The translations under genes and the position numbers were made by a program. From Nonlabens ponticola (GTDB taxonomy: Bacteria; Bacteroidota; Bacteroidia; Flavobacteriales; Flavobacteriaceae), in NCBI RefSeq assembly GCF_003966335.1, contig NZ_CP034549.1:2370001-2402000 (forward strand): a stretch of DNA of 32,000 nt, read 5' to 3'. Of the stretch, positions 6,885-29,311 are shown in pieces (the first letter of the stretch is position 1; the number at the start of each line of letters is the position of its first letter). Below the pieces are notes generated by a model. The model was not told where the DNA came from and ran no database searches. It saw nothing but the letters and a program-made list of their open reading frames with translations.

Positions 6885-6903
6885 AGTGTTTGTTGTTTGT
6901 TAC

Positions 6904-6917
6904 GCTTTCGCGAAAGC
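6904..6917. repeat. Iterated palindrome GCTTTCGCGAAAGC, copy 1 (intergenic, rfbB-rfbA spacer)
   Basis: Exact 14-mer. The flanks give TTACGCTTTCGCGAAAGCATAAT (6900-6922), identical over 23 nt to copy 8. Confidence 0.95.
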
Positions 6918-6935
6918 ATAATACCATAAATACAT

Positions 6936-7952
6936 TTAACCATTAGTTTTTTCCAGCCACTGTGGATTTTCCAGATACCAATCTATGGTCTGTTGCAATC
7001 CAACTTGAAAATCACGGCTAGGTTTCCAACCCAATTCTCGCTGAAGTTTACTGCTATCAATCGCATAGCGCAAATCGTGTCCAGGTCGATCCTTTACATA
7101 TGTGATCAACTTACGTGAGCTGCCAATAGGCCTATCCAGTTTTTGATCCATTTGATCACAAAGCAATTGTACAAGATCGATATTCTTCCATTCATTATGC
7201 CCGCCTACATTATAGGTCTCGCCATTCTTGCCTTCATGAAAAATTAAATCAATAGCAGTAGCGTGATCCTCTACATATAACCAGTCGCGTGTATAATTAC
7301 CATCACCGTAAACTGGTAATGGTTTATTATTTAGGATGCGATTTATAAATAGCGGAATCAGCTTTTCTGGGTAGTGATTAGGCCCATAATTGTTGGAGCA
7401 ATTTGAAATAACGTGAGATATATTATAAGTCTCTCCATATGCTCTTACAAAATGATCGCTACTGGCTTTAGAGGCGCTGTAAGGCGAGTTGGGGTCATAC
7501 GGTGTGTTCTCTGTAAACAATCCAGTCGCGCCCAGCGATCCATAGACCTCATCAGTGCTTACATGGTAGAAGGTATGCGCTTCTCTTGGTGACCATTTTT
7601 TACGTGCTGCTTCTAATAAATTGACTGTACCCATAACATTGGTGCGCACGAACTGCAATGGATCTTCAATTGAGCGATCTACGTGACTTTCCGCCGCTAG
7701 ATGAATAACGTCTGTAATTCCATGCTTGTCAAAAAGCTGTCGCAATAAATCCAGATCTGTAATATCACCGTGTATAAATGTATAGTTAGGCTTATTTGAA
7801 ATATCCTCGACATTCTCGAGATTACCTGCATAGGTAAGCGCATCAAGATTGAAAATATGATAATCAGGATACTTGATGACAAATAGGCGCACTACATGCG
7901 AGCCTATGAATCCAGCACCACCAGTAATGAGAATATGCTTTTTATTGTCCAT
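6936..7952 (-). CDS. rfbB: dTDP-glucose 4,6-dehydratase
   Basis: 338 aa. ILITGGAGFIGSH, STDEVYG and YSASKASSDHFV (YxxxK). Confidence 0.95.
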   Translation of the reverse strand: MDNKKHILITGGAGFIGSHVVRLFVIKYPDYHIFNLDALTYAGNLENVEDISNKPNYTFIHGDITDLDLLRQLFDKHGITDVIHLAAESHVDRSIEDPLQFVRTNVMGTVNLLEAARKKWSPREAHTFYHVSTDEVYGSLGATGLFTENTPYDPNSPYSASKASSDHFVRAYGETYNISHVISNCSNNYGPNHYPEKLIPLFINRILNNKPLPVYGDGNYTRDWLYVEDHATAIDLIFHEGKNGETYNVGGHNEWKNIDLVQLLCDQMDQKLDRPIGSSRKLITYVKDRPGHDLRYAIDSSKLQRELGWKPSRDFQVGLQQTIDWYLENPQWLEKTNG

Positions 7953-7964
7953 AACAATGCTTGA

Positions 7965-9365
7965 TCAACCTTTTCCTATAGCAAAAGCATTCATTCCTAT
8001 CTCCTCAAGCTGCTGAATATCTAAGATACCACGACCGTCAAAAACAAATGATGGCTTGAGCATTTGCTCATGGATTTGCTTCCAATCATATTCCCTGAAC
8101 TCATCCCATTCAGTCATTACAGCGACCGCATGAGCATCCTTGAAAATGTCTTCGGTAGTTTGCGCTACATTTACAAGTCTCTGATTTTCTTCTTCTGACC
8201 TTGTGTTTAGATAATCAAGGTCTGCATAGATTTGTTGTGAGGTAACCTTAGGGTCGTATACAACGACTTGAGCCTGCTCGCTCAATAGATAATCTGCCAC
8301 ATAAATAGCCGCAGACTCTCTAGTATCGTTGGTATCTTTTTTGAATGCCCATCCTAATAAAACAATTTTCTTACCATTAACTGTATTATATAAGGACTGG
8401 ATAATCTTTTCTGCAAATCTTCTTTTCTGGTAATCATTCATTTTAATTACCTGATGCCAATATTCTGCCACCTCATCTAGTCCATAGGTTTTACTTAAAT
8501 AAACGAGGTTCAAAATATCTTTTTGAAAGCAGGATCCTCCAAAGCCTACACTAGACTTCAAAAACTTAGGTCCTATTCGGGAATCTTGTCCTATGGCTCG
8601 GGCTACCTCATCAACATCAGCCTCAGTCGCCTCACAAAGCGCGCTCAAACTATTAATACTTGATACACGCTGCGCTAGAAATGCGTTTGCTGTAAGCTTA
8701 GAAAGCTCTGACGACCACACATTTGTAGTAAGAATACGATCACTAGGTACCCAATGTGCATATACATCATGTAATGCTTGAATCGCTGCAGCACCTTCTG
8801 GAGTGCGTTCACCACCTATTAAGACGCGATCTGGGTTTAGTAGATCTTGTACAGCTGTTCCTTCTGCTAAAAACTCTGGATTTGAAAGTACTTGAAAGTT
8901 GACGTCGCTACCTGTGCTTGATAGAATATCCTGTAATGCTTCAGCTGTCCTTACGGGCAAGGTAGACTTTTCAACAATTATTTTATCGTTAGTAGCTACC
9001 CTTGCAATCTGACGTGCGCAAAGTTCTATGTACTTTAGGTCTGCGGCCATTCCTTTACCTACACCATAGGTCTTAGTAGGTGTATTGACAGAAATAAAAA
9101 TCATGTCTGATTCATCAATGGCTTCATCCACATTAGTGCTAAAAAATAGGTTGCGACCTCTTGCTTCTTTAACTATATCTGAAAGGCCAGGCTCATATAT
9201 AGGTAAGTTATCCAGATCATCATCATTCCATGCCGCGATACGATCTGCATTTAGATCAACAACATGCACTTTGATTCCAGGACATTTCGCCGCTATGACT
9301 GACATGGTAGGGCCACCCACATAACCAGCACCAATACAACATATATTTTTAATGGAGTTCTTCAA
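7965..9365 (-). CDS. ugd: UDP-glucose 6-dehydrogenase (long, eukaryote-like form)
   Basis: 466 aa. [13 protein letters not shown] and [10 protein letters not shown] (catalytic Cys). The start codon is TTG (9363-9365) and there is no in-frame ATG upstream. Confidence 0.9.
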
Positions 9366-9396
9366 TTTGATAGCAATTACTTAATTATTTATTATG

Positions 9397-9404
9397 CAAA
9401 TCTA
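9397..9404 (-). promoter_or_regulatory. Candidate -7 box (TAGATTTG on the minus strand) upstream of ugd
   Basis: Exact TAnnTTTG, 32 nt upstream of the TTG start. No clear -33 element. Confidence 0.3.
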
Positions 9405-9554
9405 GTGTAAATGACTGACACTTGTATTCGTGAACGCCCGTGGTAGATGCCTGTAAAACATATAGTATTTAGGATTTGCACCCATTTCAAACTTAAATTA
9501 TCGTTAAACAATTGAAATAAAAGGCTGTAAAATTTTTTGTAGTCACGATAATTA

Positions 9555-9562
9555 TATATTTG
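9555..9562 (+). promoter_or_regulatory. Candidate -7 box (TATATTTG) upstream of the OmpA-family gene
   Basis: Exact TAnnTTTG, 26 nt upstream of the ATG at 9588. A TTG at 9537-9539 leaves only a 15-nt spacer, which is shorter than usual. Confidence 0.35.
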
Positions 9563-9587
9563 CCCTCTGAAAGCTTAAAACTTTATC

Positions 9588-10889
9588 ATGAAAAAAATTT
9601 TATTATCAGCGTTCTTGCTAGCAAGTGTGACTGCATTTGCACAAGACACTATGAACGATGACAACGATCAAAGAGATCGTGAAGAGATTCCTTACAATCA
9701 GTGGTCTTTAGACTTCGGAATTGGAGCACATCACCCACACAACCTTACCGCTCCAGGATTTTTTGTAAACAACCCATCTTTCTTCTCAGGAGATTTAGGT
9801 GTTCGTTATATGATTAACGACAAATTCGGTATCAATTTAGATTTAGGTTTAAATTACTTTGAAAATGCTGATAAAGAAGAAGATCAAAGTGGTGAATTTC
9901 AAACTAACGCTTACCGTGCTGGTCTTGAAGGTGTAGTAAATGTTGGTACAATCCTAGGCTTTAGAGAGTGGACTGATACTTTTAATGTATTGGGTCATGG
10001 TGGTATCGGTATGACAGCAATAAGATTTGATGAGGATATTAACGATGAAACTGACTGGACTGGTCATTTTATTGTAGGTATAACTCCACAAATTAAACTA
10101 TCTGATAATTTTGCCTTGAACCTAGACGCAAGCATAGTTGGATATCTGTCAACTGACGCATCTCTCGATGGTACTCGTGAACAAGCCCGTACTGATTTTG
10201 ATGGTTTTGTATCTAACTATACAATCGGTTTAAATTGGTACCTAGGAAATAAAGAAGTTCATGCAGACTGGTATAATGGATCAGAAAGCGCGCGCATCAG
10301 CGAACTTGAAGAAAGAGTAGCTACTCTAGAAACTAACAATGCGGATGATGATCAAGATGGTGTACCTAATTACCTAGACCGTGACAACACTACTGAAAGT
10401 GGTGTACGGGTAGACAATAAAGGTCGTGCTCTTGACGTAAACAAGAACGGTATTCCTGATGATATGGAAAGCGCTCTTGACAGCCGTTATGCTAAAAAAG
10501 GTGCTATTGCTTCTGGCGCTAATGGAGTAGATGGTGATGGCTTGATCAAGCAATTGATCAACGATGGTTATGTGAATGTTTACTTTGAGTTTAACAGCAC
10601 AAAGCCAACCCAATACTCTCTATCTTCTATCAATTTCCTAGCAACGTACTTGAGAGACAATCCTGAAGTTTCTGCTACGCTAACAGGTTATGCTGATGAG
10701 ATTGGTTCTGAGGATTACAACAAAAACTTATCTGAGCGTAGAGCTAAGATGGTTAACGATATCCTAGTAGCAACTGGTGTTGATGCAAGTCGTTTATCTT
10801 ACAATGGTGAAGGCGAAGATGATAGCGTAGAGAAATCAAGCTCACAAGCTAGACAACTGGTACGCAGAGTGAAGTTCCAAGTGAATTAA
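9588..10889 (+). CDS. OmpA-family outer-membrane protein with thrombospondin type-3 (Ca-binding) repeats
   Basis: 433 aa. Signal peptide MKKILLSAFLLASVTAFAQ, a beta-rich N-terminal half, DDDQDGVPNYLDRDN and DVNKNGIPDD TSP3-like repeats, and a C-terminal OmpA domain (VYFEFNSTKP...LTGYADEIGSEDYNKNLSERRAKMV). Confidence 0.9.
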   Translation: MKKILLSAFLLASVTAFAQDTMNDDNDQRDREEIPYNQWSLDFGIGAHHPHNLTAPGFFVNNPSFFSGDLGVRYMINDKFGINLDLGLNYFENADKEEDQSGEFQTNAYRAGLEGVVNVGTILGFREWTDTFNVLGHGGIGMTAIRFDEDINDETDWTGHFIVGITPQIKLSDNFALNLDASIVGYLSTDASLDGTREQARTDFDGFVSNYTIGLNWYLGNKEVHADWYNGSESARISELEERVATLETNNADDDQDGVPNYLDRDNTTESGVRVDNKGRALDVNKNGIPDDMESALDSRYAKKGAIASGANGVDGDGLIKQLINDGYVNVYFEFNSTKPTQYSLSSINFLATYLRDNPEVSATLTGYADEIGSEDYNKNLSERRAKMVNDILVATGVDASRLSYNGEGEDDSVEKSSSQARQLVRRVKFQVN

Positions 10890-10912
10890 TTCACATCAAC
10901 AAATAATTTTAA

Positions 10913-10938
10913 AGGGTCGCGATAGCGACCCTTTTTTT
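10913..10938 (+). terminator. Rho-independent terminator of the OmpA-family gene
   Basis: AGGGTCGC-GATA-GCGACCCT gives a perfect 8-bp GC-rich stem and a 4-nt loop, followed by TTTTTTT. It lies 24 nt after the stop codon. Confidence 0.85.
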
Positions 10939-11065
10939 ATGCTCCAGATTTAAATCCTTACACTCAATTGAAAATTATTTACGGCTTAAAATGCAAGTTC
11001 TATTTGAGTTTGTAGAACTCTAAAAGTCTAATGACGAGTAGGAAATATTAGTATTGAATGTACAC

Positions 11066-11079
11066 GCTTCCGCGAAAGC
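11066..11079. repeat. Iterated palindrome, degenerate copy 2 (GCTTCCGCGAAAGC, one mismatch), intergenic
   Basis: 13 of 14 positions match (T>C at position 5). It also carries the AC 5' flank seen in other copies. Confidence 0.7.
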
Positions 11080-11318
11080 TATATAAACAAAAACATACTA
11101 ACAACATCCATTGATTACTGTAATCTACCTTGAGCTGCTATACTGCCAGAACCTAAATAGTAGTCTCATTGCAAACAAGAAAGAGATATATTATTTAAGA
11201 TTGAATATTTATAGCAATAGCTGTTGTTTATGATACCTAACGCTTGATAAGAACGTACAGCTGCTAGAAAATGTCAAAATATGATAATATTCCTTAAAAG
11301 AAAGATCACTACCAATAA

Positions 11319-11350
11319 ACACTTCACTTGTTGAATTATTCTTGAAGTGT
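11319..11350 (-). terminator. Weak candidate terminator downstream of dsbD
   Basis: ACACTTCA...TGAAGTGT gives an 8-bp stem, but the loop is 16 nt. On the minus strand it is followed by TTTATT. Confidence 0.25.
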
Positions 11351-11422
11351 CAACCTCTCTTGAATCATAGTCAACACGACGAAAAAAGATATTTATAAGA
11401 GCTCTTTGCTTATCAATCTATG

Positions 11423-13456
11423 CTATTCAATTGCTTTAAGCAACCAGTCACGATATTCAACAGCATCTGGCGTGTAGCCAATAGGATCTGTGAGATTACC
11501 ACCATTAGAATCTACAATTACATAAAACGGCTGTGCGTTCACCTGATATTTTTCTATCTGCAAATCGCTCCATCTATTTCCAACGGTTCTGATCTTCTTA
11601 CCTGTTGTTTGTGATTCGTATTGATCTTCTTTAGCCAGTTTTTTTTGCTCATCAACATAAAGTGAAATTAATACTACCTCGTTTTTGAGTATTTGAAGAA
11701 CTTCATCATTTGACCACACGCGCTCTTCCATCTTGCGGCAATTCACACACGCCCAGCCGGTGAAATCAATCAAGGCAGGTTTACTGACTTTTGATGCATA
11801 AGCCAGACCTGCTTCATAATCATCAAAGGCTATTAAGTTGTGAACTGTAAAATGGGCTCCTTCAGGTAATTCAATTTCTGCAGTATTTGATGACACGCCT
11901 AGTCCATACGGCGATTCACTATAAGTCATCGGTGGTGGGAAACCACTGATGAGTTTTAAAGGTGCACCCCATAATCCTGGAATTAGATATAAAGTAAAGC
12001 ACAGAGCCAGTATTCCTAATAACAGTCTACCTACTGATATGAAACTGTCTTTATCGTCGTGCGGCAACCTGATCTTACCCAAAAGATAAAATGCCATCAC
12101 TCCAAAAATCGCAATCCAGATGGCGATAAAGACTTCGCGCTCTAACAAACCAGCCTGCCATACTAAATCTGCATTAGAAAGAAATTTAAATGCAAAAGCC
12201 AATTCTAAAAACCCTAGAAACACTTTGACCGTGTTGAGCCAGCCTCCAGACTTAGGTAGCTTATTCAAGTAACTCGGGAAAATGGCAAAAAACGCAAATG
12301 GTATTCCCAACCCGATACCAAATCCAGCCAGACCAACACTCAAAGCTGTCGCGCCACCATCAGAAGTCAAAACGCTTCCTAAAACCGCACCAATCACAGG
12401 TCCAGTGCATGAAAATGACACCAGCACCAGCGTCAACGCCATAAAGAATACACCTATAACACCACCAATATTAGAAGCTCCATCAACTTTGTTGACCCAC
12501 GAATTAGGAACCGTAATTTCAAAAGCTCCAAAAAAGCTTATGGCAAAAACCACAAAAATCAAGAAGAAGAAAATATTTACATAAGGGTTAGTGCTAAACT
12601 CATTAAAAACATCGGGCGAGACTGATTCAAATAAATGGAATGGTAAACTACAGGCAACATAAATCAATAGGATAAATACACCGTACATCAATCCAGACAA
12701 CTTGCCTTTACTACTATTCTCAGACTGTTTAGTAAAGAATGAAACAGTCATCGGTATCATGGGATACACACATGGTGTGAGTAGAGCGCCAAACCCAGCT
12801 AGCAAACACAGAATAAAAATGGTCGCTAGACCGTCATCATCTTTAATATCAGTTTGAGAAACATTTGAGGTATCCTCGTCTTGCTCTTTCTTGCTAATAG
12901 TTTCCTCAAGGGTTGGAATCTGGGCAATGGTCGGTGAAAGATCGTTATCATAATACGTATCAATGATGAGACTTGCATCTTCACCAACTACGACATTTGG
13001 TTTCAACTTGAAAATCAGAACCTCTGGTGAGGCTGGCAGGCATCGCTCATCATCACATACCATAAATTCAACCTCGGCAATGATATAATCTAGCTGTTCA
13101 TTTATAAGTTCGATATTTTGAGTAAAAACAGCTTTGTTATCAAATTGATAAACATCTGCACCCCAAATGTCTGAGTACTCCGCATAGGTGCCACTCTCAT
13201 TCGTTGGCCCGACTAGGCTGTAGTTATCAGGCTGATCATAATATTTAAACTGTGTAGGTATGGGACTTGGGAACGCATCAACAGGAATTTGAGAGTACAT
13301 GTGCCATCCATCTTCCAGTATGGCTGTGCTCTTTAAAGAATATTCCTTATCGCTAATTTTCTCAACCGTAGTCGTCCATTCTGTAGGATCACTTAATTGA
13401 GCGCCAGCATAGCTAGATATCAATAAAAAAACTAATGCTGTTACCAGTCTAATCAT
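11423..13456 (-). CDS. dsbD: Thiol:disulfide interchange protein / protein-disulfide reductase, DsbD family
   Basis: 677 aa. Signal peptide, N-terminal periplasmic domain, TM core with LTPCVYPMIP and SFSCTGP cysteines, and a C-terminal thioredoxin fold with WACVNCRKME (CxxC). Confidence 0.9.
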   Translation of the reverse strand: MIRLVTALVFLLISSYAGAQLSDPTEWTTTVEKISDKEYSLKSTAILEDGWHMYSQIPVDAFPSPIPTQFKYYDQPDNYSLVGPTNESGTYAEYSDIWGADVYQFDNKAVFTQNIELINEQLDYIIAEVEFMVCDDERCLPASPEVLIFKLKPNVVVGEDASLIIDTYYDNDLSPTIAQIPTLEETISKKEQDEDTSNVSQTDIKDDDGLATIFILCLLAGFGALLTPCVYPMIPMTVSFFTKQSENSSKGKLSGLMYGVFILLIYVACSLPFHLFESVSPDVFNEFSTNPYVNIFFFLIFVVFAISFFGAFEITVPNSWVNKVDGASNIGGVIGVFFMALTLVLVSFSCTGPVIGAVLGSVLTSDGGATALSVGLAGFGIGLGIPFAFFAIFPSYLNKLPKSGGWLNTVKVFLGFLELAFAFKFLSNADLVWQAGLLEREVFIAIWIAIFGVMAFYLLGKIRLPHDDKDSFISVGRLLLGILALCFTLYLIPGLWGAPLKLISGFPPPMTYSESPYGLGVSSNTAEIELPEGAHFTVHNLIAFDDYEAGLAYASKVSKPALIDFTGWACVNCRKMEERVWSNDEVLQILKNEVVLISLYVDEQKKLAKEDQYESQTTGKKIRTVGNRWSDLQIEKYQVNAQPFYVIVDSNGGNLTDPIGYTPDAVEYRDWLLKAIE

Positions 13457-14783
13457 TCAATGAAATTTTGAGTATTCGTCGTGTCCTATCGGTAATGGAA
13501 CCGTGCATAGCAGACCTCAAACCTACTAGCCATAAAATTGTATCGCCTTGTTTGAGAACCATGCTTCTGCGTTTGTCCACCTGCGAGACTTTAATATCGA
13601 TAAGTAAGTCACTTATCAATTTTGAACCTTTCATACCATAGGGTTTCATGCGATCACCTTGCTCCCAAATTTTTAAAGTTAATGGAAATTCTAGCTGATC
13701 CAGATCAAGAAGTAATTGATTTTTATCCAGACCATTATCAAGTAAATCTGTTGCCAATTCTTTACCCAATTCCTCGATCTCCATTGTACCGTGTGATGTC
13801 GCGATAACTGTGTCGTTCTCATTAATGGTATAAACTGCATTCACCGCATTATCAACTGCTGATAGTATTAAATGTTCCCGATCCTTGAGTAGCTCGTGAG
13901 TTTCGCTAATCAATCGTTTACCACTTTGCGCGTCTAGTAATTCAAGTAAAGCCTCGCTATCATTAAATCCATACCTATTCAATAGGTGATAGAGCAATTC
14001 ACCAGCTTGTTCATGAAGCTTTATTGCCTCAATATCTAATAATAATTCAGCGTTTTTTTGGGTAGTTACGCTTTCGCGAAAGCGTAACACGGCACCTTCC
14101 ACAATACTCATCGCAGCATCTAGATAGAACAAGCTTTTTGCAAAGTTGCCTCTCAATTGCGGCAAAGCCTGATGTAATGCTGGCAACACCTCATTGCGCA
14201 GACTGTTGCGCATGTACTTGTTGGATCGATTGCTTGAATCTTCTCGACATTTAATAGCATTAGCCTTTGCGTACTCCTGAATTTGTTGTCTACTGAAAGT
14301 CAATAGCGGTCTGTAAACGAGATCAGTCACGGCAGGAATTCCTGTGAGGCCTTTCAAGCCAGTTCCGCGATTAAGGTTTATGAGAAACGTCTCTAATTGA
14401 TCATCCAGATGATGAGCGGTGACCACCTTATCATAATTATGCTGCTTGCAAATTTCTTGAAACCATTCATATCTCAAATCGCGAGCGGCCATTTGGGTCG
14501 ATATACCACGCTGGCTGGCTATTTTTAAAGTATCAAAGTCAGTTTTATGAAATTTGACACCTAGCTGATGAGCTAGATTCTCGACAAACCATGCATCATT
14601 ATCGCTCTCATCACCACGCAACTTAAAATTGCAATGTGCCACGGCAAAATCTACGTTGATTCTCTTGAGCAAATGAGCCAATACCACACTATCCAGTCCA
14701 CCACTTACAGCAAGCAAGATCTTTTGCTTTAAAAGCTTTGGAAAGTGTTGATCAATATGTAATGAAAAGTCTTCTACCATCAT
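13449..14783 (-). CDS. tilS: tRNA(Ile)-lysidine synthase
   Basis: 444 aa. PP-loop LLAVSGGLDSVVL and the HHLDDQLETFL motif. Its stop overlaps the dsbD start by 8 nt. Confidence 0.9.
   Translation of the reverse strand: MMVEDFSLHIDQHFPKLLKQKILLAVSGGLDSVVLAHLLKRINVDFAVAHCNFKLRGDESDNDAWFVENLAHQLGVKFHKTDFDTLKIASQRGISTQMAARDLRYEWFQEICKQHNYDKVVTAHHLDDQLETFLINLNRGTGLKGLTGIPAVTDLVYRPLLTFSRQQIQEYAKANAIKCREDSSNRSNKYMRNSLRNEVLPALHQALPQLRGNFAKSLFYLDAAMSIVEGAVLRFRESVTTQKNAELLLDIEAIKLHEQAGELLYHLLNRYGFNDSEALLELLDAQSGKRLISETHELLKDREHLILSAVDNAVNAVYTINENDTVIATSHGTMEIEELGKELATDLLDNGLDKNQLLLDLDQLEFPLTLKIWEQGDRMKPYGMKGSKLISDLLIDIKVSQVDKRRSMVLKQGDTILWLVGLRSAMHGSITDRTRRILKISLND
14065..14088. repeat. Iterated palindrome copy 3, longest form: perfect 24-bp palindrome GTTACGCTTTCGCGAAAGCGTAAC inside tilS
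   Basis: The 14-mer core is at 14070-14083 and symmetric GTTAC/GTAAC flanks extend it. It is read as ..VLRFRESVT.. in TilS. Confidence 0.95.
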
Positions 14784-14789
14784 TCAAAA

Positions 14790-16103: not shown

Positions 16104-16210
16104 GCTGCAAAGGTACTCGCGATTGATGAGATTATAAGAGTCTCAAATGGAAAACCCGATGCAGCAAGTCAGCAATATCGGGCTATGAGTTCAGTTGATT
16201 TTTTATGCTT

Positions 16211-18546: not shown

Positions 18547-18575
18547 AAAAAAACAGCCAGTCTCTCGACTGGCTG
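18547..18575 (-). terminator. Rho-independent terminator of lpd
   Basis: On the minus strand, CAGCCAGTC-GAGA-GACTGGCTG gives a 9-bp stem followed by TTTTTTT. It lies 22 nt downstream of the lpd stop. Confidence 0.8.
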
Positions 18576-18596
18576 AGTAAAATATTTCAAAAAAGT

Positions 18597-19997: not shown

Positions 19998-20030
19998 AAA
20001 TCAATTTTATGTTCTTGTTAATTCAGCTAG

Positions 20031-20038
20031 CAAAGATA
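20031..20038 (-). promoter_or_regulatory. Candidate -7 box (TATCTTTG on the minus strand) upstream of lpd
   Basis: Exact TAnnTTTG, 34 nt upstream of the ATG at 19997. Confidence 0.3.
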
Positions 20039-20064
20039 CAAAATGGTCAAGCGACTGGATAGAA

Positions 20065-21372: not shown

Positions 21373-21492
21373 GCTGGCTTTTTTTATAAAATTACTGTAC
21401 GGTCGTTGATAGAGACTAGTGGTTAACAATCTTTTCTTAACCTTGTAACAATTGAAAGTCAAGTAATACTAACCAGTAACCAAACCAACCAA

Positions 21493-21987
21493 GTGAGTAC
21501 AACTCTTGAAAAAGAATTTGTTGAACAGCTAGAGACTAATCAAAATATCGTCCACAAGATTTGTAGGCTTTATACGGATAATCAGGATGCCCATAACGAC
21601 CTGTTTCAAGAGGTAACGATCCAGTTGTGGAGAGCCTACCCAAAATTTAGGGGTGATTCAAAGTTCTCTACATGGATGTATCGTGTTGCCCTGAATACGG
21701 CCATCACGCTGTATCGCAAGTCAAAGCGTCGTGTAAACACGCAGCGCTTTGACACAGTCGAATTCAAGATTGAAGACACGACTGAAGATGATGAAACCAT
21801 GGAGCAATTGACCTTGTTATACGGCGCCGTCAAACAATTAAATGATATAGAAAAAGCTCTGGTTTTTCTATATCTGGAAGATAAAAATTACCGTGATATT
21901 GCGGAAACCCTAGGAATAAGTGAGGTCAATGCACGAGTGAAGATGAACAGGATCAAGACCAAGCTAACTAAAATCATAAATCCATAA
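21493..21987 (+). CDS. ECF-type RNA polymerase sigma-70 family factor
   Basis: 164 aa. Region 2 (DLFQEVTIQLWRAYPKFRGDSKFSTWMYRVALNTAI) and region 4 HTH (YRDIAETLGISEVNARVKMNRIK). GTG start. Confidence 0.85.
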   Translation: MSTTLEKEFVEQLETNQNIVHKICRLYTDNQDAHNDLFQEVTIQLWRAYPKFRGDSKFSTWMYRVALNTAITLYRKSKRRVNTQRFDTVEFKIEDTTEDDETMEQLTLLYGAVKQLNDIEKALVFLYLEDKNYRDIAETLGISEVNARVKMNRIKTKLTKIINP

Positions 21988-21992
21988 AACCC

Positions 21993-22634
21993 ATGGATCA
22001 ATTAGATATACTTAAATCAAAATGGCAGGCGCAGTCCACTGACTATCCTACCTACTCAAGAGAGCAGTTGACGCCCTTGCTGGCAAGCAAATCCAGCAGT
22101 ATCGTCAAGTGGCTTTTTTATATTGCCATTGGGGAATTTATATTTTTCGTTTTATTGAACATCTTGCTTTCTGATAGCGAGTCTACCGAGATGAGCATTA
22201 GTATCATGGGCGAATTCTTGTTTTATGGCTCCTATGTACTACATTATGTAGCTATTGGAATATTTATTTATTTATTCTGGAAAAATTATAAGAATATCTC
22301 AGCGAGCCAACCCACGCGCAGTCTCATGAAGAACATTTTGAAGACTAGAAAAACCATGAAATGGTATATCTGGTACAATTTGATTTACATCATGCTGTTT
22401 GGTGTTATTGCTACTTTATTGATTGTAACAAATGACCTTGAGTTTGCAAAATTGATGAATCAACCGAATTTTGCTGAACACAAACAAACATTAGTTATAG
22501 GATATATAGTTTCTATGTTTGTGATACTGACCGTTATCTGTGCTGTTCTTTATGGTTTTTACAGCTTGATTTACGGTATTCTACTAAGACGCTTGAAGAG
22601 AAATTATCAGGAATTGAAGAAGATGGAGGTTTGA
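21993..22634 (+). CDS. Membrane protein, about 4 TM segments, co-transcribed with the ECF sigma factor; possible anti-sigma or partner, unverified
   Basis: 213 aa. It starts 5 nt after the sigma stop. A short cytoplasmic N-terminus is followed by hydrophobic segments. There is no HxxxCxxC zinc anti-sigma motif. Confidence 0.55.
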   Translation: MDQLDILKSKWQAQSTDYPTYSREQLTPLLASKSSSIVKWLFYIAIGEFIFFVLLNILLSDSESTEMSISIMGEFLFYGSYVLHYVAIGIFIYLFWKNYKNISASQPTRSLMKNILKTRKTMKWYIWYNLIYIMLFGVIATLLIVTNDLEFAKLMNQPNFAEHKQTLVIGYIVSMFVILTVICAVLYGFYSLIYGILLRRLKRNYQELKKMEV

Positions 22635-22681
22635 TGTTTGAATGATTGCTTTTTAAAATTAACGAGCTACACCCATCTAGA

Positions 22682-22706
22682 TCTTCCCTCAAGGGAAGAC
22701 TTTTTT
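22682..22706 (+). terminator. Rho-independent terminator of the sigma/partner operon
   Basis: TCTTCCC-TCAA-GGGAAGA gives a 7-bp stem, followed by C and TTTTTT. Confidence 0.7.
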
Positions 22707-22721
22707 ATAACGATTGAAAAG

Positions 22722-22759
22722 TTTTCCCTTGAGGGAAATGTCTCGGTTTGACCGAGACA
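22722..22759 (-). terminator. Tandem hairpins downstream of recG (probable terminator)
   Basis: On the minus strand, TGTCTCGG-TCAAA-CCGAGACA (8-bp stem) is followed directly by TTTCCC-TCAA-GGGAAA and then ACTTTTC. Confidence 0.5.
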
Positions 22760-22805
22760 AAGGGTGTTGCGCATGAGTAGACTACAATCTGCCTACTGAA
22801 AACCA

Positions 22806-24911
22806 TCAACTAATATACTTCCACAAACCTTTCTTGTTTTGCAAATGGTTCATGACGCGACGTACAGATTGATGCTTGTCTAGTCCTATCGATGGATCTT
22901 CATTCAGAAATTTGATCGCTGCGTTTCTTGCTTGTGCTAGTAACTCGTTATCCTTTACAATATCTGCGATGCGCAGCTCCATCACGCCGCTTTGTCGGGT
23001 TCCCATGATATCGCCTGGACCTCGTAGTTTGAGGTCCACCTCAGCAATTTCAAAACCATCTGTCGTTCTTACCATGGTTTCCAGTCTGGTTTTAGCCTCA
23101 GCACTCAACTTGTGACTAGTCATTAAAATACAGTAACTCTGGTCTGCGCCGCGTCCTACTCTGCCGCGCAGTTGGTGCAGTTGTGATAGCCCAAAACGCT
23201 CAGCGCTCTCGATAATCATTACACTGGCATTGGGCACATTAACACCAACTTCAATGACCGTTGTAGCGACCATGATCTGCGTTTCACCCTTAACAAATCG
23301 TTGCATCTCATAATCCTTGTCATCGGGCTTCATCTGGCCATGAACGATACTCACCTGATACTGCGGATTAGGAAACTCGCGCACGATACTTTCATAGCCA
23401 TCCATCAAATCCTTATAATCTAGCGTTTCAGATTCCTGAATTAACGGATATACGATATAGACTTGTCGGCCTTTAGCAATCTCATCCTTGATAAATTTGA
23501 ATACGCGCAGTCGGTCTTTATCATACCTGTGAACGGTTTGTATCTCCTTGCGACCTGGCGGTAATTCGTCAATGATAGATATATCGAGATCACCGTATAG
23601 ACTCATAGCCAAGGTACGCGGTATAGGTGTTGCCGTCATCACCAACACATGTGGTGGAAAATCGTTTTTCTTCCACAGCTTTGCGCGTTGAGCGACGCCA
23701 AATCGATGCTGCTCATCAACAATCGCCACACCTAAATTTTGAAACTTGACTTTATCTTCTATCAGCGCGTGAGTTCCTATTAAAATATTTAAACTGCCAT
23801 CTTCCAATTCTTCATGAATTACTCGTCTGTCTTTTGTCTTTACAGATCCAGTAAGCAACGAGACATTCAAACCCGTAGGTGCTAATAATTCTGAAACGCC
23901 AGCATAGTGTTGCTGGGCAAGAATCTCAGTAGGTGCCATGATGCAGGCTTGGAATCCATTATCAATAGCTAGCAAACAAGTTAAGACTGCAACAATGGTT
24001 TTACCAGAACCTACATCACCTTGCAGCAAGCGGTTCATGTGCGATCCATTTGCCATGTCTGCCCTTATTTCTTTTACCACGCGTTTTTGGGCGCCCGTAA
24101 GCTCAAAAGGCAAATTATAATTGTAGAAATTATGAAAATGGTCGCCTACGGTTTCAAATGCATAGCTTTTGATTTTGGTTTTTCTGATTCTGTTTTGCAA
24201 CAGCAATTCCATTTGAATAAAGAATAATTCTTCAAACTTCAGGCGCTTCATGGCTTGCTGCAACGCCTTATTACTTGATGGGAAATGTATCTGATGCATT
24301 GCCTCATTCTTGCTCATGAGCTGCTGGTCACGCATCAAATCGTCAGGTAGCGTCTCAAAAAACGCACTTTTGATTTCGGAATATAATTGACGCATCAATC
24401 GTACAAAGTATTGATTGGTCAACTTACGTTTGACCAATTGCTCAGTCGATGGATAGATAGGCGTCATGGCTGTGTGCTGCCTACCCTTAAATTCCTTGAG
24501 CAGTTCTATATCTGGATGTGCGATGCTGTACATGGATCCGTAGCGAGAAACCTTGCCGTACACTACATAAACCTCATTGGTCTTTAAACTGTCTTTAAAG
24601 AACTTCTGACCTTTAAACCACACGAGTTCCATGCGACCAGAGTCATCTGCAAGAGTAGCAACGAGTCGTGTGGCTTTTCCTGCGCCAGCCGTTCCTATGG
24701 AAATTAATCTACCTATTACCTGAACTTGTGCTGCTTCAGGAACGAGCTGTCCTATTTTGTGAAACTTGGTGCGATCCACATACCTATTGGGAAAAAAGTT
24801 GGCTAGATCGCCGTAGTTTGTGATGCCTAATTCCTTGCGCAACAAATCTGCACGAGCTGGTCCTACACCATTTAGGTAATCGATAGGCGTGGTAAGAAAG
24901 TTGATAGGCAT
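22806..24911 (-). CDS. recG: ATP-dependent DNA helicase RecG
   Basis: 701 aa. N-terminal wedge/OB region, Walker A GDVGSGKT, DEQHRFG motif II and the QLRGRVGRG motif VI. Confidence 0.95.
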   Translation of the reverse strand: MPINFLTTPIDYLNGVGPARADLLRKELGITNYGDLANFFPNRYVDRTKFHKIGQLVPEAAQVQVIGRLISIGTAGAGKATRLVATLADDSGRMELVWFKGQKFFKDSLKTNEVYVVYGKVSRYGSMYSIAHPDIELLKEFKGRQHTAMTPIYPSTEQLVKRKLTNQYFVRLMRQLYSEIKSAFFETLPDDLMRDQQLMSKNEAMHQIHFPSSNKALQQAMKRLKFEELFFIQMELLLQNRIRKTKIKSYAFETVGDHFHNFYNYNLPFELTGAQKRVVKEIRADMANGSHMNRLLQGDVGSGKTIVAVLTCLLAIDNGFQACIMAPTEILAQQHYAGVSELLAPTGLNVSLLTGSVKTKDRRVIHEELEDGSLNILIGTHALIEDKVKFQNLGVAIVDEQHRFGVAQRAKLWKKNDFPPHVLVMTATPIPRTLAMSLYGDLDISIIDELPPGRKEIQTVHRYDKDRLRVFKFIKDEIAKGRQVYIVYPLIQESETLDYKDLMDGYESIVREFPNPQYQVSIVHGQMKPDDKDYEMQRFVKGETQIMVATTVIEVGVNVPNASVMIIESAERFGLSQLHQLRGRVGRGADQSYCILMTSHKLSAEAKTRLETMVRTTDGFEIAEVDLKLRGPGDIMGTRQSGVMELRIADIVKDNELLAQARNAAIKFLNEDPSIGLDKHQSVRRVMNHLQNKKGLWKYIS

Positions 24912-24927
24912 GCTCGCAATCTATACT

Positions 24928-24958
24928 CAAAGGTAGCATTGTACCTGCAAACAATCAA
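24928..24958 (-). promoter_or_regulatory. Candidate recG promoter (TTG, 20-nt spacer, TACCTTTG)
   Basis: Exact TAnnTTTG on the minus strand at 24928-24935, 17 nt upstream of the ATG. A TTG lies at 24956-24958 with a 20-nt spacer. Confidence 0.4.
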
Positions 24959-25041
24959 CGCATGGTTAAACCTTGATCATACAAAACAGTCACATGCATG
25001 GATCCTCAAATAGAGGTATGACTTTTGTATTTTGCCAGTCC

Positions 25042-27138
25042 ATGAGATATTTTTTTATTGCCCTTTTATTTTCTTTTTCCACCATCCTAGACGCTCAAGG
25101 AATCGAGCAGCCCAAGGTAGATTTTATTACTGCTACCGCGCAGGTTGAAGTCGATACAAGCATCACGTATATTAAGGGATCGGTTTCGTTTGAAATTCAG
25201 ATTTTGGAAGATGTTGATACGCTCAAAATCGATGCAAGGAACTTAGATGATTTTCAAGTTACGTCTAGCACACATCCTGATCTTGCAAGCAGTAAGAATG
25301 ATGCAGAAATTGTTGTGGTATCATGCTTTCGCGAAAGCAAAACAGCCCAAATCACTATCAACTACACAGCGACACCAACGCAGGCTCTATACTTTATTGA
25401 CAAGGATGCTGACGGAAATTGGGACCAAGCGTGGACGCAAGGTCAAGGTAAATACACGAGTAACTGGATGCCAAGTATTGATGATGTGAACGAGAAAATG
25501 ATTTGGGATATTTCGGTCATCGCACCCAACGGTCTCACGGCAATCGCCAATGGAAAACTCCTATCCAAAACCAGCGATCAAGATGCCACGACATGGAATT
25601 ATGACATGACTAGACCCATGTCTAGTTATCTGCTCGCTTTGGCCATAGGCGATTATGCATCGCAATCCAAAAAATCAGAACGCGGCACACCACTTCAATT
25701 TTACTATTATCCAGAAGATAAATCTAAATTATGGTCCACCTACCAGCAGTCTGTTGAGATATTTAATTTTCTTGAAAAGGAAATAGGGATTGCTTACCCA
25801 TGGCAAAACTACAAGCAAGTACCTGTCAAGGATTTTTTATATGCTGGTATGGAAAATACTGGAACTACCTTTTTTGACGACCAGTTTGTCCAAGACGCTG
25901 CTGGCGCGATAGATCGCAGCTATGTAAATGTCAATGCGCACGAGCTGTCACATCAATGGTTTGGAAATCTTGTGACTGCTCAATCAGGTGAACATCACTG
26001 GCTGCAAGAAGGATTTGCAACGTACTATGCACTATTAGCAGAGAAAGAACTTTACGGCAACCAGCATTTTATGGTCAAGCTCTATGAAAACGCTGAGGCT
26101 CTTGCAGACCAAACAAGAACTGGAAAAAGCATTGCCCTACTCGATCCCAAGGCTAGCTCACTCACTTTTTATCAGCATGGCGCCTGGGCAGCACACGCCT
26201 TGAGAGAATTGGTTGGTGATGCTGCTTTCAAGAAAAGTATCAAGGAGTTTTTACAGGAGTACTCTTTCAAGAGTGCGAGCACAGATGATTTGCTCAATAT
26301 TATGACGGCAAACTCTGGCAAGGATCTTTCCTATTACAAGAAGACCTGGCTACTGTCTGAGCAATTCCCATCACAAGAAGCCTTGAGATTGTTGCGCGCA
26401 GATAAATTTATGGAAGAGTACTTGCAGTTACTGGCTAGACGTATTTCACCATTTGAAGATGCTTACAATAGTTATAAGGAAACCCTGAAATATCCTGTGA
26501 GCAAGGAAATGGTATTGGAAATGATCGCACAGCTTAATCTGCATGACGATTACCGCAAGTACAGTCTACAATCAACTGCTGCGTCTATCAATAATGCAGA
26601 AATTAGACAGTTGATCGCACTTACTACCAGAGAAGTCACGCCTGATAATCAAAACCTAGTCGCCGAATTGCTATTGGACAAATCCTACCTGACGCGAGAA
26701 AGCGCGATGTACCTGCTGTGGAATGCGGCGATCAACAAAGAGAAAATGCTGCGTACCGCATGGTCTGCATGGGATACCACAAATGAATCGCTAGAGATGG
26801 CATGGCTGGTATTAGCGATTAATACCGATGGCTTTATCGATCAAGAAAAATTGAGTTTTACCACTAGACTGCAGCAATTTACAGCTGCTAGTTTTGGCAT
26901 TGAAACTAGAATGGCGGCTTTTGATTATCTAAAGGCTCTGGACTTTTTTGCGGAAAGTAATTATATTGATCTGCTGAACTCGGCAGCGCATCATAACTGG
27001 CGTTACTATACTTATGCTCGCAATTTGATAAAAGAATTACAAAAAGATCCTAAACACGCAGCTGCGCTAAAAGCTGCGATGGATCAGGTGAACGATAAAG
27101 CGAAAACAAAACTGGAACAAGTCCTAGACCTAGAGTAA
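25042..27138 (+). CDS. M1-family zinc aminopeptidase, secreted
   Basis: YAGMENTG (GAMEN-like), HELSHQWFGN, then 18 residues on, LQEGFATY (HExxH-18-E gluzincin). I prefer the ATG at 25042 because it gives the signal peptide MRYFFIALLFSFSTILDAQG. The tracked ORF begins at an upstream TTG. Confidence 0.85.
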   Translation: MRYFFIALLFSFSTILDAQGIEQPKVDFITATAQVEVDTSITYIKGSVSFEIQILEDVDTLKIDARNLDDFQVTSSTHPDLASSKNDAEIVVVSCFRESKTAQITINYTATPTQALYFIDKDADGNWDQAWTQGQGKYTSNWMPSIDDVNEKMIWDISVIAPNGLTAIANGKLLSKTSDQDATTWNYDMTRPMSSYLLALAIGDYASQSKKSERGTPLQFYYYPEDKSKLWSTYQQSVEIFNFLEKEIGIAYPWQNYKQVPVKDFLYAGMENTGTTFFDDQFVQDAAGAIDRSYVNVNAHELSHQWFGNLVTAQSGEHHWLQEGFATYYALLAEKELYGNQHFMVKLYENAEALADQTRTGKSIALLDPKASSLTFYQHGAWAAHALRELVGDAAFKKSIKEFLQEYSFKSASTDDLLNIMTANSGKDLSYYKKTWLLSEQFPSQEALRLLRADKFMEEYLQLLARRISPFEDAYNSYKETLKYPVSKEMVLEMIAQLNLHDDYRKYSLQSTAASINNAEIRQLIALTTREVTPDNQNLVAELLLDKSYLTRESAMYLLWNAAINKEKMLRTAWSAWDTTNESLEMAWLVLAINTDGFIDQEKLSFTTRLQQFTAASFGIETRMAAFDYLKALDFFAESNYIDLLNSAAHHNWRYYTYARNLIKELQKDPKHAAALKAAMDQVNDKAKTKLEQVLDLE
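25324..25339. repeat. Iterated palindrome copy 7, inside the M1 peptidase gene (16-bp palindrome TGCTTTCGCGAAAGCA)
   Basis: The 14-mer core is at 25325-25338, read as SCFRESKT. Confidence 0.95.
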
Positions 27139-27648: not shown

Positions 27649-27657
27649 AATTTGAAA

Positions 27658-29211
27658 TTATTTAGATCCACCTAGATGCACGCAATCCTTGAGATGCTGC
27701 ATGCTTTGAAAAGCGACAGGTGATTTTTGATATTTGTATGTGTATTCCAGCGTTTGGGTCATGTTGTTGTCACCTATACTCACATCTACATCACGCATAT
27801 CAAATTGGCATGGATGCTCATAACCGGCAGCATGTGTAATTTCCAACACTTCTTTATTGAATTTCTTAAAATAGCTAGCAAGTCGATCTGCTTTTTCTGG
27901 AACGACGATTCCTCGCTGCAACCACTTGTTTTGAGTAGCAACACCAGTAGGACAGGTATTATTATGACAAGCCTTTGCCTGAATACAGCCTATGGAAATC
28001 ATCGCCTCGCGAGCTACATTGATACAATCGGCACCCATAGAAAATGCCATCGCGGCTTTGGCAGGAAAACCTAATTTACCACTAGCTACAAAGACAATAT
28101 CATCAGTCATATCTCTAGCTTGAAATACTTGATATAAGCTGGAAAAACCGTAGACCCATGGTAGCGAGACGTGATCTGCAAAACTAGGTGGAGCCGCACC
28201 AGTGCCGCCTTCACCACCATCTATAGTTATAAAATCCGGGCCTTTACCTGTCACTTTCATGATATCTGCCAGTTCTTCCCATTGTTCTAGCTTGCCTATC
28301 GCCGCTTTAATTCCTACGGGCAATCCTGTTTCTTGCGCTATGCTTTCTACAAACTCAACCAGACCATCGATGCCTTCAAAAGCTGTGTGCGATGGTGGTG
28401 ATAGCACATCTTTACCCATAGGTACATTGCGTATCTCACTAATTTCTTTGGTTATTTTAGAACCTGGCAGTACGCCACCTTTTCCAGGTTTGGCACCTTG
28501 CGATAATTTTACCTCAATCGCACGCACTTGTGGATGATCTTTTACTAGCTGCTTGAGTTTTTCCATGGAAAAGTTTCCATCGTCATCTCGCACGCCAAAG
28601 TAACCCGTACCAAAATGAAAAACCACATCTGCACCGCGCTTATGGTATGGTGACAAACCACCTTCACCAGTGTTGTGGTAAGCATGTACTTTTTTGGCAC
28701 CATGATTCATCGCATCAATAGCCTTGGCGCTCAAACTACCGTAACTCATGGCACTAATATTAATGATGCTGGCAGGACGGTATGGTCTTTTTCTGTTTTT
28801 GGCCGCGCCCATGACCTTGGCACAAGGAACAAAATCTGGCTCTTTATCTACCTGACTTCCTTTCTCAACCTTAAAAGGCACCATGGCGTTATTGATAAAA
28901 ATGTATTGGTGCGAGTAAATATCCCGATCAGTTCCAAAGCCCTCGTAGTTATTCTCATCCTTGGCACTTGCATAAATCCAACCACGCTCAATTCTATTAA
29001 ATGGTAATTCCTCGCGATTATTTGCTACAATATATTGGCGTAATTCTGGGCCAATGCTCTCCAGCCAGTAACGCGCATGACCTACCACAGGAAAATTGCG
29101 CAGAATGATATGATTCTTCTGGAAAATATCTCGGATTGCTACTAGAACAATAAAAAACAACAGATACCAATACCACGCGATACTACCCAAAAACTCTAAT
29201 ACAGATTCCAT
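27658..29211 (-). CDS. FMN-binding glutamate synthase family protein (stand-alone GltS FMN-domain homologue), membrane anchored
   Basis: 517 aa. N-terminal TM (IAWYWYLLFFIVLVAI), central TIM-barrel motifs typical of the glutamate synthase FMN domain (ISAMSYGSLS, KLSQGAKPGKGG, DFITIDGGEGGTGAAP) and a C-terminal Cys cluster CHNNTCPTGVATQ. Confidence 0.8.
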   Translation of the reverse strand: MESVLEFLGSIAWYWYLLFFIVLVAIRDIFQKNHIILRNFPVVGHARYWLESIGPELRQYIVANNREELPFNRIERGWIYASAKDENNYEGFGTDRDIYSHQYIFINNAMVPFKVEKGSQVDKEPDFVPCAKVMGAAKNRKRPYRPASIINISAMSYGSLSAKAIDAMNHGAKKVHAYHNTGEGGLSPYHKRGADVVFHFGTGYFGVRDDDGNFSMEKLKQLVKDHPQVRAIEVKLSQGAKPGKGGVLPGSKITKEISEIRNVPMGKDVLSPPSHTAFEGIDGLVEFVESIAQETGLPVGIKAAIGKLEQWEELADIMKVTGKGPDFITIDGGEGGTGAAPPSFADHVSLPWVYGFSSLYQVFQARDMTDDIVFVASGKLGFPAKAAMAFSMGADCINVAREAMISIGCIQAKACHNNTCPTGVATQNKWLQRGIVVPEKADRLASYFKKFNKEVLEITHAAGYEHPCQFDMRDVDVSIGDNNMTQTLEYTYKYQKSPVAFQSMQHLKDCVHLGGSK

Positions 29212-29297
29212 TTAAATTTTAATAGAGCCTAAAAGTACGATATGCCTGTGGGTTTTTCATAATCGTCTATCGATGCAATAAGGCTTGTTTTGATTAC

Positions 29298-29311
29298 GCT
29301 TTCGCGAAAGC
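29298..29311. repeat. Iterated palindrome copy 8 (intergenic, divergent promoter region)
   Basis: Exact 14-mer. The 23-nt TTACGCTTTCGCGAAAGCATAAT (29294-29316) is identical to copy 1. Confidence 0.95.

Follow-up and report, generated by a model that had tools for sequence, protein, structure and literature searches.

An iterated palindromic word of the Nonlabens/Dokdonia group of Flavobacteriaceae and its possible role as a recombination-linked self signal

The stretch of Nonlabens ponticola DNA considered here (the window: 32,000 bp, NCBI RefSeq assembly GCF_003966335.1, contig NZ_CP034549.1, positions 2,370,001 to 2,402,000 of the forward strand) raises the question of why one perfect 14-bp palindrome, GCTTTCGCGAAAGC, recurs in it again and again, inside unrelated genes as well as in spacers. 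A pattern search returned seven exact copies and a single one-mismatch copy, GCTTCCGCGAAAGC, with no further match in the window at up to two mismatches, and the eight coordinates given in a preliminary description of this DNA, including that of the one-mismatch copy at 11066, are all correct. The answer developed below is that the word is specific to the Nonlabens/Dokdonia group of the Flavobacteriaceae, that new copies form where they stand through base substitutions, at permissive places in genes or in spacers, after which their DNA sequence stays invariant, and that they are maintained by a directional force acting on DNA. The full unit is a dyad-symmetric element of ~70 bp, consisting of the 16-mer CGCTTTCGCGAAAGCG and flanks of ~28 bp on either side. 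As to function, a recombination-linked self-recognition signal, most likely acting at uptake/transformation, is tentatively preferred on the strength of its likeness to known systems.

The abundance of the word was gauged in an unbiased sample of 159,899 bp, comprising the window and the syntenic pabB neighbourhoods of six other Nonlabens species, picked regardless of the motif. The preliminary description had proposed a count against a Markov expectation, and in these seven species the excess is strong, as a third-order model predicts 2e-4 occurrences of the 14-mer and 7.5e-6 of the 16-mer where 35 and 27, respectively, are found, and every top-frequency 10-mer of the sample is a fragment of the 14-mer. 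The earlier statement that composition cannot explain the copies also holds within the window, where dinucleotide shuffles give a mean of 0.08 matches and a maximum of 2, none of 100 shuffles reaching the eight that are present. A scan of one genome per species (185,579 species, 596 Gb) gave at least 120 matching stretches, whose taxon classes were assigned from record titles. Among the matches listed, 83 of the 120 stretches come from Dokdonia, Nonlabens (including strain BBFL7) or uncultured Flavobacteriaceae, often with 2-3 copies per 8 kb, and 29 come from other phyla with one copy each, which is the chance level for 596 Gb. Exact copies, one or two per stretch, were also seen in other Flavobacteriaceae, namely Aquimarina (L110:157, 1090), Leeuwenhoekiella (L112:5130, L030:1476) and Altibacter (L107:1605), and some copies outside Nonlabens have a Nonlabens-like flank, e.g., Aquimarina L110:157. 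Judged from the many scattered stretches, the word is probably spread genome-wide, and extrapolation from the density in the window suggests ~600 copies per genome.

The copies are predominantly intact, the numbers of perfect, one-mismatch and two-mismatch copies being 133, 13 and 14, such that perfect copies are ~10 times as frequent as those with one mismatch. By a crude call of open reading frames (ORFs) on 155 copies, 66% are intragenic and 34% are intergenic, the latter against ~13% of intergenic DNA, with some surplus near the 5' ends of ORFs and with coding-phase counts of 55, 23 and 24, the favoured phase encoding AFAKA. Overall there is about one copy per 3-5 kb, and the 68 gaps measured, drawn partly from stretches selected for containing a copy, have a median of 3.1 kb, with the closest pair 856 bp apart. 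Gaps below 1.5 kb make up 4.4% of the 68 as opposed to 37% under uniform placement, a value as low being reached in 0 of 5000 simulations (P<2e-4).

Within the window, five copies are intragenic and the other three lie in spacers, and successive copies are separated by 4162, 3004, 1831, 2294, 3099, 4031 and 3973 bp. The five genes had been named in the preliminary description as unrelated ORFs, and NCBIfam agrees, assigning them to TilS, PabB, a TonB-dependent receptor, an NDH-2-like oxidoreductase (formerly given as ndh) and an M1 aminopeptidase. The sites, with the strands of the surrounding genes, are as follows.

6904 to 6917: exact core, in the 51-bp spacer between rmlB (6936-7952, minus strand) and rmlA (6030-6884, minus strand), 20 bp upstream of the rmlA start; keto-skew flank score 0.52.
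11066 to 11079: one-mismatch core GCTTCCGCGAAAGC, in a spacer of 533 bp that separates two convergent genes, one of the OmpA family (9588-10889, plus strand) and dsbD (11423-13456, minus strand); flank score 0.32.
14070 to 14083: exact core, inside tilS (13449-14783, minus strand), phase 1, RFRES; the flanks complete a 24-bp palindrome.
15901 to 15914: exact core, inside pabB (14790-16103, minus strand), phase 0, AFAKA.
18195 to 18208: exact core, inside the TonB-dependent receptor gene (16211-18460, minus strand), phase 0, AFAKA.
21294 to 21307: exact core, inside the NDH-2-like oxidoreductase gene (20065-21462, minus strand), phase 2, LSRK; flank score 0.60.
25325 to 25338: exact core, inside the M1 aminopeptidase gene (24973-27138, plus strand), phase 1, CFRES.
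29298 to 29311: exact core, in the divergent spacer between a glutamate-synthase-like gene (27658-29211, minus strand) and pcrA/uvrD (29431-31764, plus strand); flank score 0.36.
14040 to 14113: example of the full ~70-bp element, with a 5' flank poor in C and rich in G/T, then the dyad CGCTTTCGCGAAAGCG, then a 3' flank poor in G and rich in A/C.

The layout of this last example is repeated around every copy of the window, and the keto-skew flank score is positive for all eight. Each of the three codon phases is found among the intragenic copies (two encode AFAKA, two xFRES and one LSRK), and the 24-bp perfect palindrome in tilS, GTTACGCTTTCGCGAAAGCGTAAC, occupies 14065-14088. In the NDH-2-like protein the LSRK peptide directly follows the GGGFGG nucleotide-binding loop, and the flank score of this copy is the highest in the window. 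The mechanical ORFs of two host genes are too long at the 5' end, that of the NDH-2-like gene (TTG start) having 465 aa against 437-441 aa in orthologues and that of pabB (GTG start) 437 aa against 405 aa annotated in the source genome, so that these two motif copies lie just ~65 nt and ~93 nt, respectively, from the likely true starts. The 11066 copy was considered as a possible remnant of the DUF885 gene that follows dsbD, and bears the motif, in sister species; no such remnant was seen. A separate hairpin with a 10-bp stem, AAAGGGTCGCGATAGCGACCCTTT, stands at 10911-10934, just after the OmpA-family gene, with a T run on the plus strand only; it looks like the intrinsic terminator of that gene and is unrelated to the iterated word, though it contains TCGCGA.

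Comparison of orthologous sites indicates how copies are kept and how they come into being. The tilS site reads CGC TTT CGC GAA AGC G at the identical codon position in seven of seven Nonlabens species, with no synonymous change, and is surrounded by hypervariable residues; from the codon usage of the window, the probability that RFRES is spelled by this codon set is ~0.0045 per species. Among 120 TilS homologues, 49 have exactly RFRES and a few more have near or interrupted variants, all of the named ones being Nonlabens, and other genera of Flavobacteriaceae have unrelated peptides at that column, e.g., EIQKK, SVQKK, LLFSK or SISDA. Since the DNA at this site is invariant and the other genera have unrelated peptides there, the DNA word dictates the peptide, and not the reverse. 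The pabB copy at 15901 was found in N. ponticola alone of the seven species compared, where GCT TTC GCG AAA GCA (AFAKA) stands opposite AFEQL, AFHQL, AFCKL and the like in orthologues without any indel, and N. spongiae gained a pabB copy of its own, which lies six codons further downstream and in a different frame (RFRES). The dsbD gene of N. spongiae encodes LAFAKAE where other species have LAYAKEV-like peptides, and its core differs at 8 of 14 positions from the corresponding sequence of a metagenome-assembled genome (MAG) that is 82% identical overall, within a patch of ~20 nt of very high local divergence (identity between loci L242 and L245 is 82-88%). Nonlabens sp. YIK11 and N. marinus have both the TonB receptor copy and the NDH-2-like copy at the codon used in N. 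ponticola, BBFL7 and N. xiamenensis lack the TonB receptor copy, and the M1 aminopeptidase site is common to two species, the orthologous position of BBFL7 (L123:1398) carrying the motif. BBFL7 is without the NDH-2-like gene at this place, yet it has a spacer copy at the equivalent spot (L123:6066), between a sigma-factor gene and a lipoamide-dehydrogenase-like gene, which fits a pressure to retain a copy in that interval. At the two sites that could be compared in Dokdonia-Nonlabens orthologue pairs, neither motif was common to both genera, and sites therefore seem to turn over at that distance, as far as these few comparisons indicate.

Such a highly repeated palindromic word might suggest a miniature mobile element spread by insertion, whether a miniature inverted-repeat transposable element (MITE), a repetitive extragenic palindrome (REP) with its REP-associated tyrosine transposase (RAYT), or an in-frame inserter like the Rickettsia palindromic element. 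Two N. spongiae-like metagenome tilS genes (L245:10743-10790 and L246:998-1070, orthologous to 14070-14083 of the window) could be read in the same sense, as the palindrome is split exactly in its middle, between CGCTTTCGC and GAAAGCG, by an in-frame insertion of 24 bp (GCGGTCGCCGAGCGGAGTCGAAGT) or of 48 bp with both sub-units doubled, by which the word is destroyed. These insertions have the look of filler, or of slippage, where a break or a hairpin may have formed in the middle of the dyad. When pabB, dsbD and the TonB receptor gene are aligned by codons, on the other hand, orthologues with the motif have the same length at the site as those without it, the copies have no terminal repeats or target duplications, and 66% of them are intragenic, in frame and in all three phases. 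No other interrupted copy was found among the examined loci with half-words 1-300 bp apart, a pattern that is blind to the tilS type of break. A MITE or in-frame inserter is ruled out by the absence of indels at the three sites, and REP elements and bacterial interspersed mosaic elements (BIMEs) are ruled out by the intragenic fraction, the perfect palindrome and the occurrence of single copies no closer than 856 bp, in keeping with the preliminary description, such that insertion of any kind has a negligible probability. The repeat finder further indicates that flanks beyond the core are unrelated between copies, similarity falling away outside the core; the copies are thus not duplicated blocks, and with no larger repeat found, the earlier view of an iterated word stands.

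The distribution of the word in phages and in variable DNA is mixed. The lytic Nonlabens phages P12024S and P12024L (L247 and L248, whole genomes of ~35.7 kb each, near-identical relatives) have zero copies at up to two mismatches, where ~8 would be predicted at host density. They also have zero TCGCGA sites against ~4 estimated from base composition, with CGCG only 9 times in P12024S, and each encodes its own DNA methyltransferase; the absence of TCGCGA may be a trace of host restriction aimed at the core hexamer. A viral scan gave mostly single matches, consistent with chance. Unlike the lytic phages, two phage-like stretches from IMG/VR, L212 (portal, capsid, HNH) and L176 (depolymerase, S49 protease), have three copies each at host-like spacing; the sequences L212, L237 and L240, at 99.7-100% identity, represent one phage or very nearly so and were counted once. 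In the window, a polysaccharide/nucleotide-sugar cluster at 1-10.9 kb, of lower G+C (0.37-0.41), has one exact copy. Its genes (1-10900) include a UDP-GlcNAc 2-epimerase, two members of the UDP-glucose/GDP-mannose dehydrogenase family, an epimerase/dehydratase, rmlC, rmlA and rmlB, and its gene content varies between Nonlabens species (L121-L123, L243).

The anatomy of the element was defined from 151-167 aligned copies. In 83% of copies a C occupies position -1, with its symmetric counterpart G at +1, so that the core extends to the 16-mer, and T stands at -3 and -4 in 60-69%. Outward from there, the left flank is G/T-rich with 6-13% C and the right flank is A/C-rich with 7-11% G, against a background of 18-19%, until the composition returns to background by ~30 bp, giving a skewed tract of ~28 bp per side. 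Peaks of T at -13, -10, -7 and -4 are found in intergenic and coding copies alike, and the asymmetry is the same in both, being strongest within genes at codon positions 3 and 1. Of 167 copies, 88% have a keto-skew score above zero, and the mean score is 0.20, compared with -0.007 at random positions and -0.03 for chance copies in other phyla, and the flank signature is somewhat weaker in the phage-like copies. The preliminary description had held that the flanks tend to extend the symmetry, and its TTAC...GTAA consensus is borne out, but pairing is not, as the two flanks of one copy match each other no better than in the permutation control. What the flanks have is a characteristic composition and a consensus for each side, and an extended stem or flank hairpin is ruled out by the lack of excess complementarity. 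Of 24 occurrences of the half-site GCTTTCG, 22 belong to a full palindrome, which indicates that the dyad is the unit, isolated half-words not being enriched. An arrangement of independent half-sites placed back to back, as opposed Chi-like 7- or 8-mers, was likewise discarded, the halves not being found alone. It had also been argued that a palindrome excludes functions like those of Chi or of the FtsK-orienting polar sequences (KOPS). This remains valid for a KOPS-like signal read in a single orientation, but not for a two-sided Chi-like or 3'-tail role, which is compatible with palindromy because the polar flanks give each half a polarity of its own.

The core has a second property. On direct reading, GCGAAAGC stands at positions 7-14 in the top strand and again at 1-8 in the bottom strand, the two overlapping by GC, such that the 14-mer consists of exactly two GCGAAAGC words, one per strand, and each single strand reads as a GT-rich, C-poor, triplet-phased tract, then GCTTTC, then GCGAAAGC at the 3' side. 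According to the available part of PMC13037366, d(GCGAAAGC) is Hirao's “extraordinarily stable mini-hairpin,” with a melting temperature of 76.5 C, survival in 7 M urea and resistance to 3'-5' exonucleases, and it is present in the phage G4 origin, ssiA and the N4 early promoters. The same available text states that this stability is not captured by standard thermodynamic parameters, which accounts for the modest hairpin energy computed for the 16-mer (-4.3 kcal/mol, z = -0.9). The likeness to these elements lies in the identical 8-mer, here on both strands with the GC overlap. The known cases differ in being single functional sites at phage or plasmid origins or promoters and not a genome-iterated word, and a dyad-fused pair as seen here is not described for them in the available part of that source (PMC13037366).

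The identity of the 8-mer invites the proposal that the element is a single-strand initiation (priming) signal, at which GCGAAAGC would exclude SSB and direct primase as in the G4 origin and ssiA, acting on both strands at a spacing on the scale of a few Okazaki fragments. In the available text of PMC13037366 the word belongs to hairpin I of the G4 complementary-strand origin, which is thought to be recognised by primase, and its presence on both strands and the regular ~3 kb spacing would suit such a role. Isolated GCGAAAGC words, however, are not enriched, though one strand would suffice, and the lytic phages are without the word. Chromosomal lagging-strand priming is not known to require such signals, and on balance priming is considered a distinctly improbable function. 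An RNA-level or transcription signal, i.e., a terminator, attenuator or mRNA hairpin, is less probable again and must be regarded as very unlikely, even though the word can fold as a 6-10 bp hairpin and the copies are enriched in spacers and near gene 5' ends. The sequence after the hairpin is A/C-rich, with 21-26% T and no T run, the loop bases are as invariant as the stem with no compensatory changes, and the copies stand at arbitrary positions inside unrelated genes. No Rfam match was obtained in the window at the gathering threshold, and the terminator-like sites called in 6000-25999 include none of the seven copies there. An intrinsic terminator, which the preliminary description had also dismissed, is ruled out by the A/C-rich 3' flank and by this absence from the terminator-like list.

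It could also be supposed that the word has no function and is a by-product of sequence-specific repair, methylation or gene conversion that turns near-matches into it, for example through an orphan methyltransferase on TCGCGA or CGCG together with a mismatch endonuclease, or through ectopic short-patch conversion. Both TCGCGA and CGCG lie within the core, the ~10:1 ratio of perfect to one-mismatch copies and the replacement of a locally very divergent patch of ~20 nt by a new copy would be expected of such a process, and HIP1, the highly iterated palindrome of cyanobacteria, is tied to orphan methyltransferases in the available part of PMC4390886. However, a repair bias of 4-6 bp cannot account for 16 exact positions and 28-bp polar flanks, and TCGCGA outside the motif numbers 11 in 96 kb (33 in total) against ~14 estimated from base composition. 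Pure drive alone leaves the even spacing unexplained. It would also reach phage genomes as they replicate inside the host, but the lytic phages are free of copies. A by-product is hence judged improbable, though less so than a priming signal.

A more substantial alternative is that evenly placed copies structure or buffer the chromosome, either as sites of a chromosome-organising, dimeric nucleoid protein or as supercoil-responsive elements that extrude the mini-hairpin under negative supercoiling. The exact 16-bp dyad without free half-sites, the even spacing and the retention of sites within the genus are all compatible with this proposal. HIP1 is similarly conserved at its sites, and Xu et al. 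proposed a chromosome-structuring (nucleoid) role for it in the available part of PMC5861425; mini-hairpin words are likewise placed in replication origins and in the early promoter regions of phage N4 in the available part of PMC13037366. The strand-specific, triplet-phased, GT-rich flanks, however, have no obvious role for a duplex-binding protein, copies are present on phage-like DNA, and the 16-mer is weak as an ordinary DNA hairpin by the computed energy given above. The known site-specific nucleoid proteins (ParB, Noc, SlmA and MatP) have tens of sites, as opposed to one per 3-5 kb here. The consensus of parS and of the Noc-binding site (NBS) is a palindrome of 14-16 bp in few to tens of copies, with TTTC-N4-GAAA in place of the TTTC-N2-GAAA of the present word. 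A role in chromosome structure is accordingly rated as rather unlikely, while carrying more weight than the by-product explanation.

Comparison with known systems places the element nearest to HIP1 and to the DNA uptake sequence (DUS) of Neisseriaceae and the uptake signal sequence (USS) of Pasteurellaceae, the analogues already named in the preliminary description, as supported by conservation at orthologous sites, location in permissive regions, even spacing and absence from lytic phages. HIP1 (GCGATCGC) is likewise a perfect G+C-rich palindrome with a restriction-type hexamer core, hugely over-represented, and as in HIP1 a perfect short palindrome is here found far above Markov expectation, scattered widely within and between ORFs. 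In the available part of PMC5861425, HIP1 lies inside genes in all frames and in spacers, is kept at orthologous positions and has an unsettled function. The differences are that HIP1 has 8 bp against 14-16 bp here, that some cyanobacteria have more than one copy per gene (PMC5861425, available part) against one per 3-5 kb, and that the present word is GCTTTCGCGAAAGC, not GCGATCGC, with hosts in the Flavobacteriaceae of the Bacteroidota and not in cyanobacteria; 28-bp strand-polar flanks and a double mini-hairpin word are not described for HIP1 in the available portions of the sources. DUS and USS are clade-specific words in hundreds of copies (a number that is extrapolated here), at permissive positions of the core genome and yet stringently kept, rare in recently acquired DNA, enriched in spacers and with a motif that extends beyond the core, as in the stringently kept, regularly spaced copies of permissive regions described above. 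DUS is reported to be conserved in permissive core regions, absent from recently acquired genes and spaced in line with conversion tracts, and many new DUS seem to arrive by recombination and not by point mutation, often with high local divergence (PMC2397512), which the divergent patch at the N. spongiae dsbD copy recalls. The depletion seen with DUS and USS has a partial counterpart here, in clade specificity, zero copies in lytic phages and one copy in the cluster at 1-10.9 kb, with phage-like stretches nonetheless carrying copies. Inverted DUS pairs are often terminators (PMC2397512), whereas in the present case one word alone forms the dyad, and the seven copies scanned include no terminator-like one. 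The Chi sites of RecBCD/AddAB share with the element their over-representation as self markers in genes, at about one per 4-5 kb, and GT-rich surroundings on the strand from which the 3' tail is formed.

The statistical behaviour of the element is best matched by uptake sequences, given its even spacing, conservation in permissive regions, enrichment in spacers, absence from lytic phages and scarcity in the variable cluster. It is this behaviour, together with the uptake/transformation role now proposed for HIP1 (bioRxiv 10.64898/2026.06.24.733823), that leads us to commit, tentatively, to a recombination-linked self-recognition signal, with a two-sided Chi-like stop for chromosomal break processing as a closely related alternative and the nearest to an uptake role. 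This model proposes that a dimeric protein would read the 16-bp dyad in duplex DNA, as the exact dyad and the lack of enriched isolated halves suggest, and that there would be a step in which each side yields a single strand with its 3' end at the core, as the polarity of the flanks suggests. On either strand, this end would consist of the mini-hairpin word GCGAAAGC, which resists nucleases, and ahead of it would lie a GT-rich tract with triplet phase such as RecA prefers, as RecA is reported to bind TGG-type triplet repeats preferentially in the available part of PMC3763553. The preference of RecA and the exonuclease resistance of the cap would fit 3'-ended strands at the core. The signal would work when conspecific DNA is taken up and recombined, and its abundance and even spacing could be sustained by selection and/or by an uptake- or conversion-biased drive. 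A further possibility, which we regard as rather doubtful, is a bacterial genome signal of a new kind, a structure-assisted two-sided recombination mark in which the tasks of uptake sequences and of Chi would be united in a single symmetric unit specific to a clade of marine Flavobacteriaceae. In such a mark the overlapping GCGAAAGC words would cap and protect 3'-ended strands arriving from either side, the GT-rich, triplet-phased 28 nt would act as a loading pad for RecA/DprA, and a dedicated dimeric protein would read the exact duplex dyad.

Several points weigh against a recombination-linked self signal. The phage-like DNA that bears the word departs from what a strict marker of chromosomal self would predict, and the figures for density and spacing derive in part from stretches selected for containing a copy. 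DUS and USS are asymmetric and read in one orientation, in contrast to a palindrome, and Chi is a word of 5-8 nt, asymmetric, biased with respect to the replication strand and read on single-stranded DNA, in contrast to an exact 16-bp dyad. Isolated GCGAAAGC words are not enriched outside the dyad, unlike a Chi-type single-strand word that is active singly. Methylation is a key feature of HIP1, and both competence and biased uptake have been established in the DUS and USS systems, whereas the present element is known, and was compared with them, by its sequence. The composition of the flanks could have been left behind by mutation and owe nothing to selection, the connection to RecA and to exonucleases is one of resemblance between sequences, and the even spacing and conservation of sites would also fit a chromosome-structuring protein. 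A literature search on Nonlabens or Dokdonia with competence, uptake or methylome found nothing relevant, and we know of no competence, uptake bias or cognate protein in these genera.

No prior description of the element was found. A literature search with the 14-mer returned no paper, the literature on Dokdonia or Nonlabens and palindromes held nothing on an iterated palindrome (in one match “palindrom” was used for CRISPR), and the HIP review of Elhai (2015) makes no mention of Flavobacteria. The word is an independent highly iterated palindrome in a phylum other than the cyanobacteria. Only a handful of hyper-abundant words (USS/DUS, Chi, HIP1) are known, and they reveal how self and foreign DNA are discriminated and how recombination proceeds. 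The function of HIP1 has been debated for ~30 years, and relative to it the present element offers a much longer exact core, strand-polar, triplet-phased flanks and a match to a biophysically characterised mini-hairpin. Protein evolution is affected as well, as the word forces AFAKA, RFRES or LSRK peptides into unrelated proteins. In practice, the word provides a marker for the binning of Nonlabens/Dokdonia DNA and for the spotting of recently acquired regions. Dokdonia is already a model photoheterotrophic flavobacterium, and the anatomy described here gives concrete, cheap experimental handles in cultivable marine bacteria.

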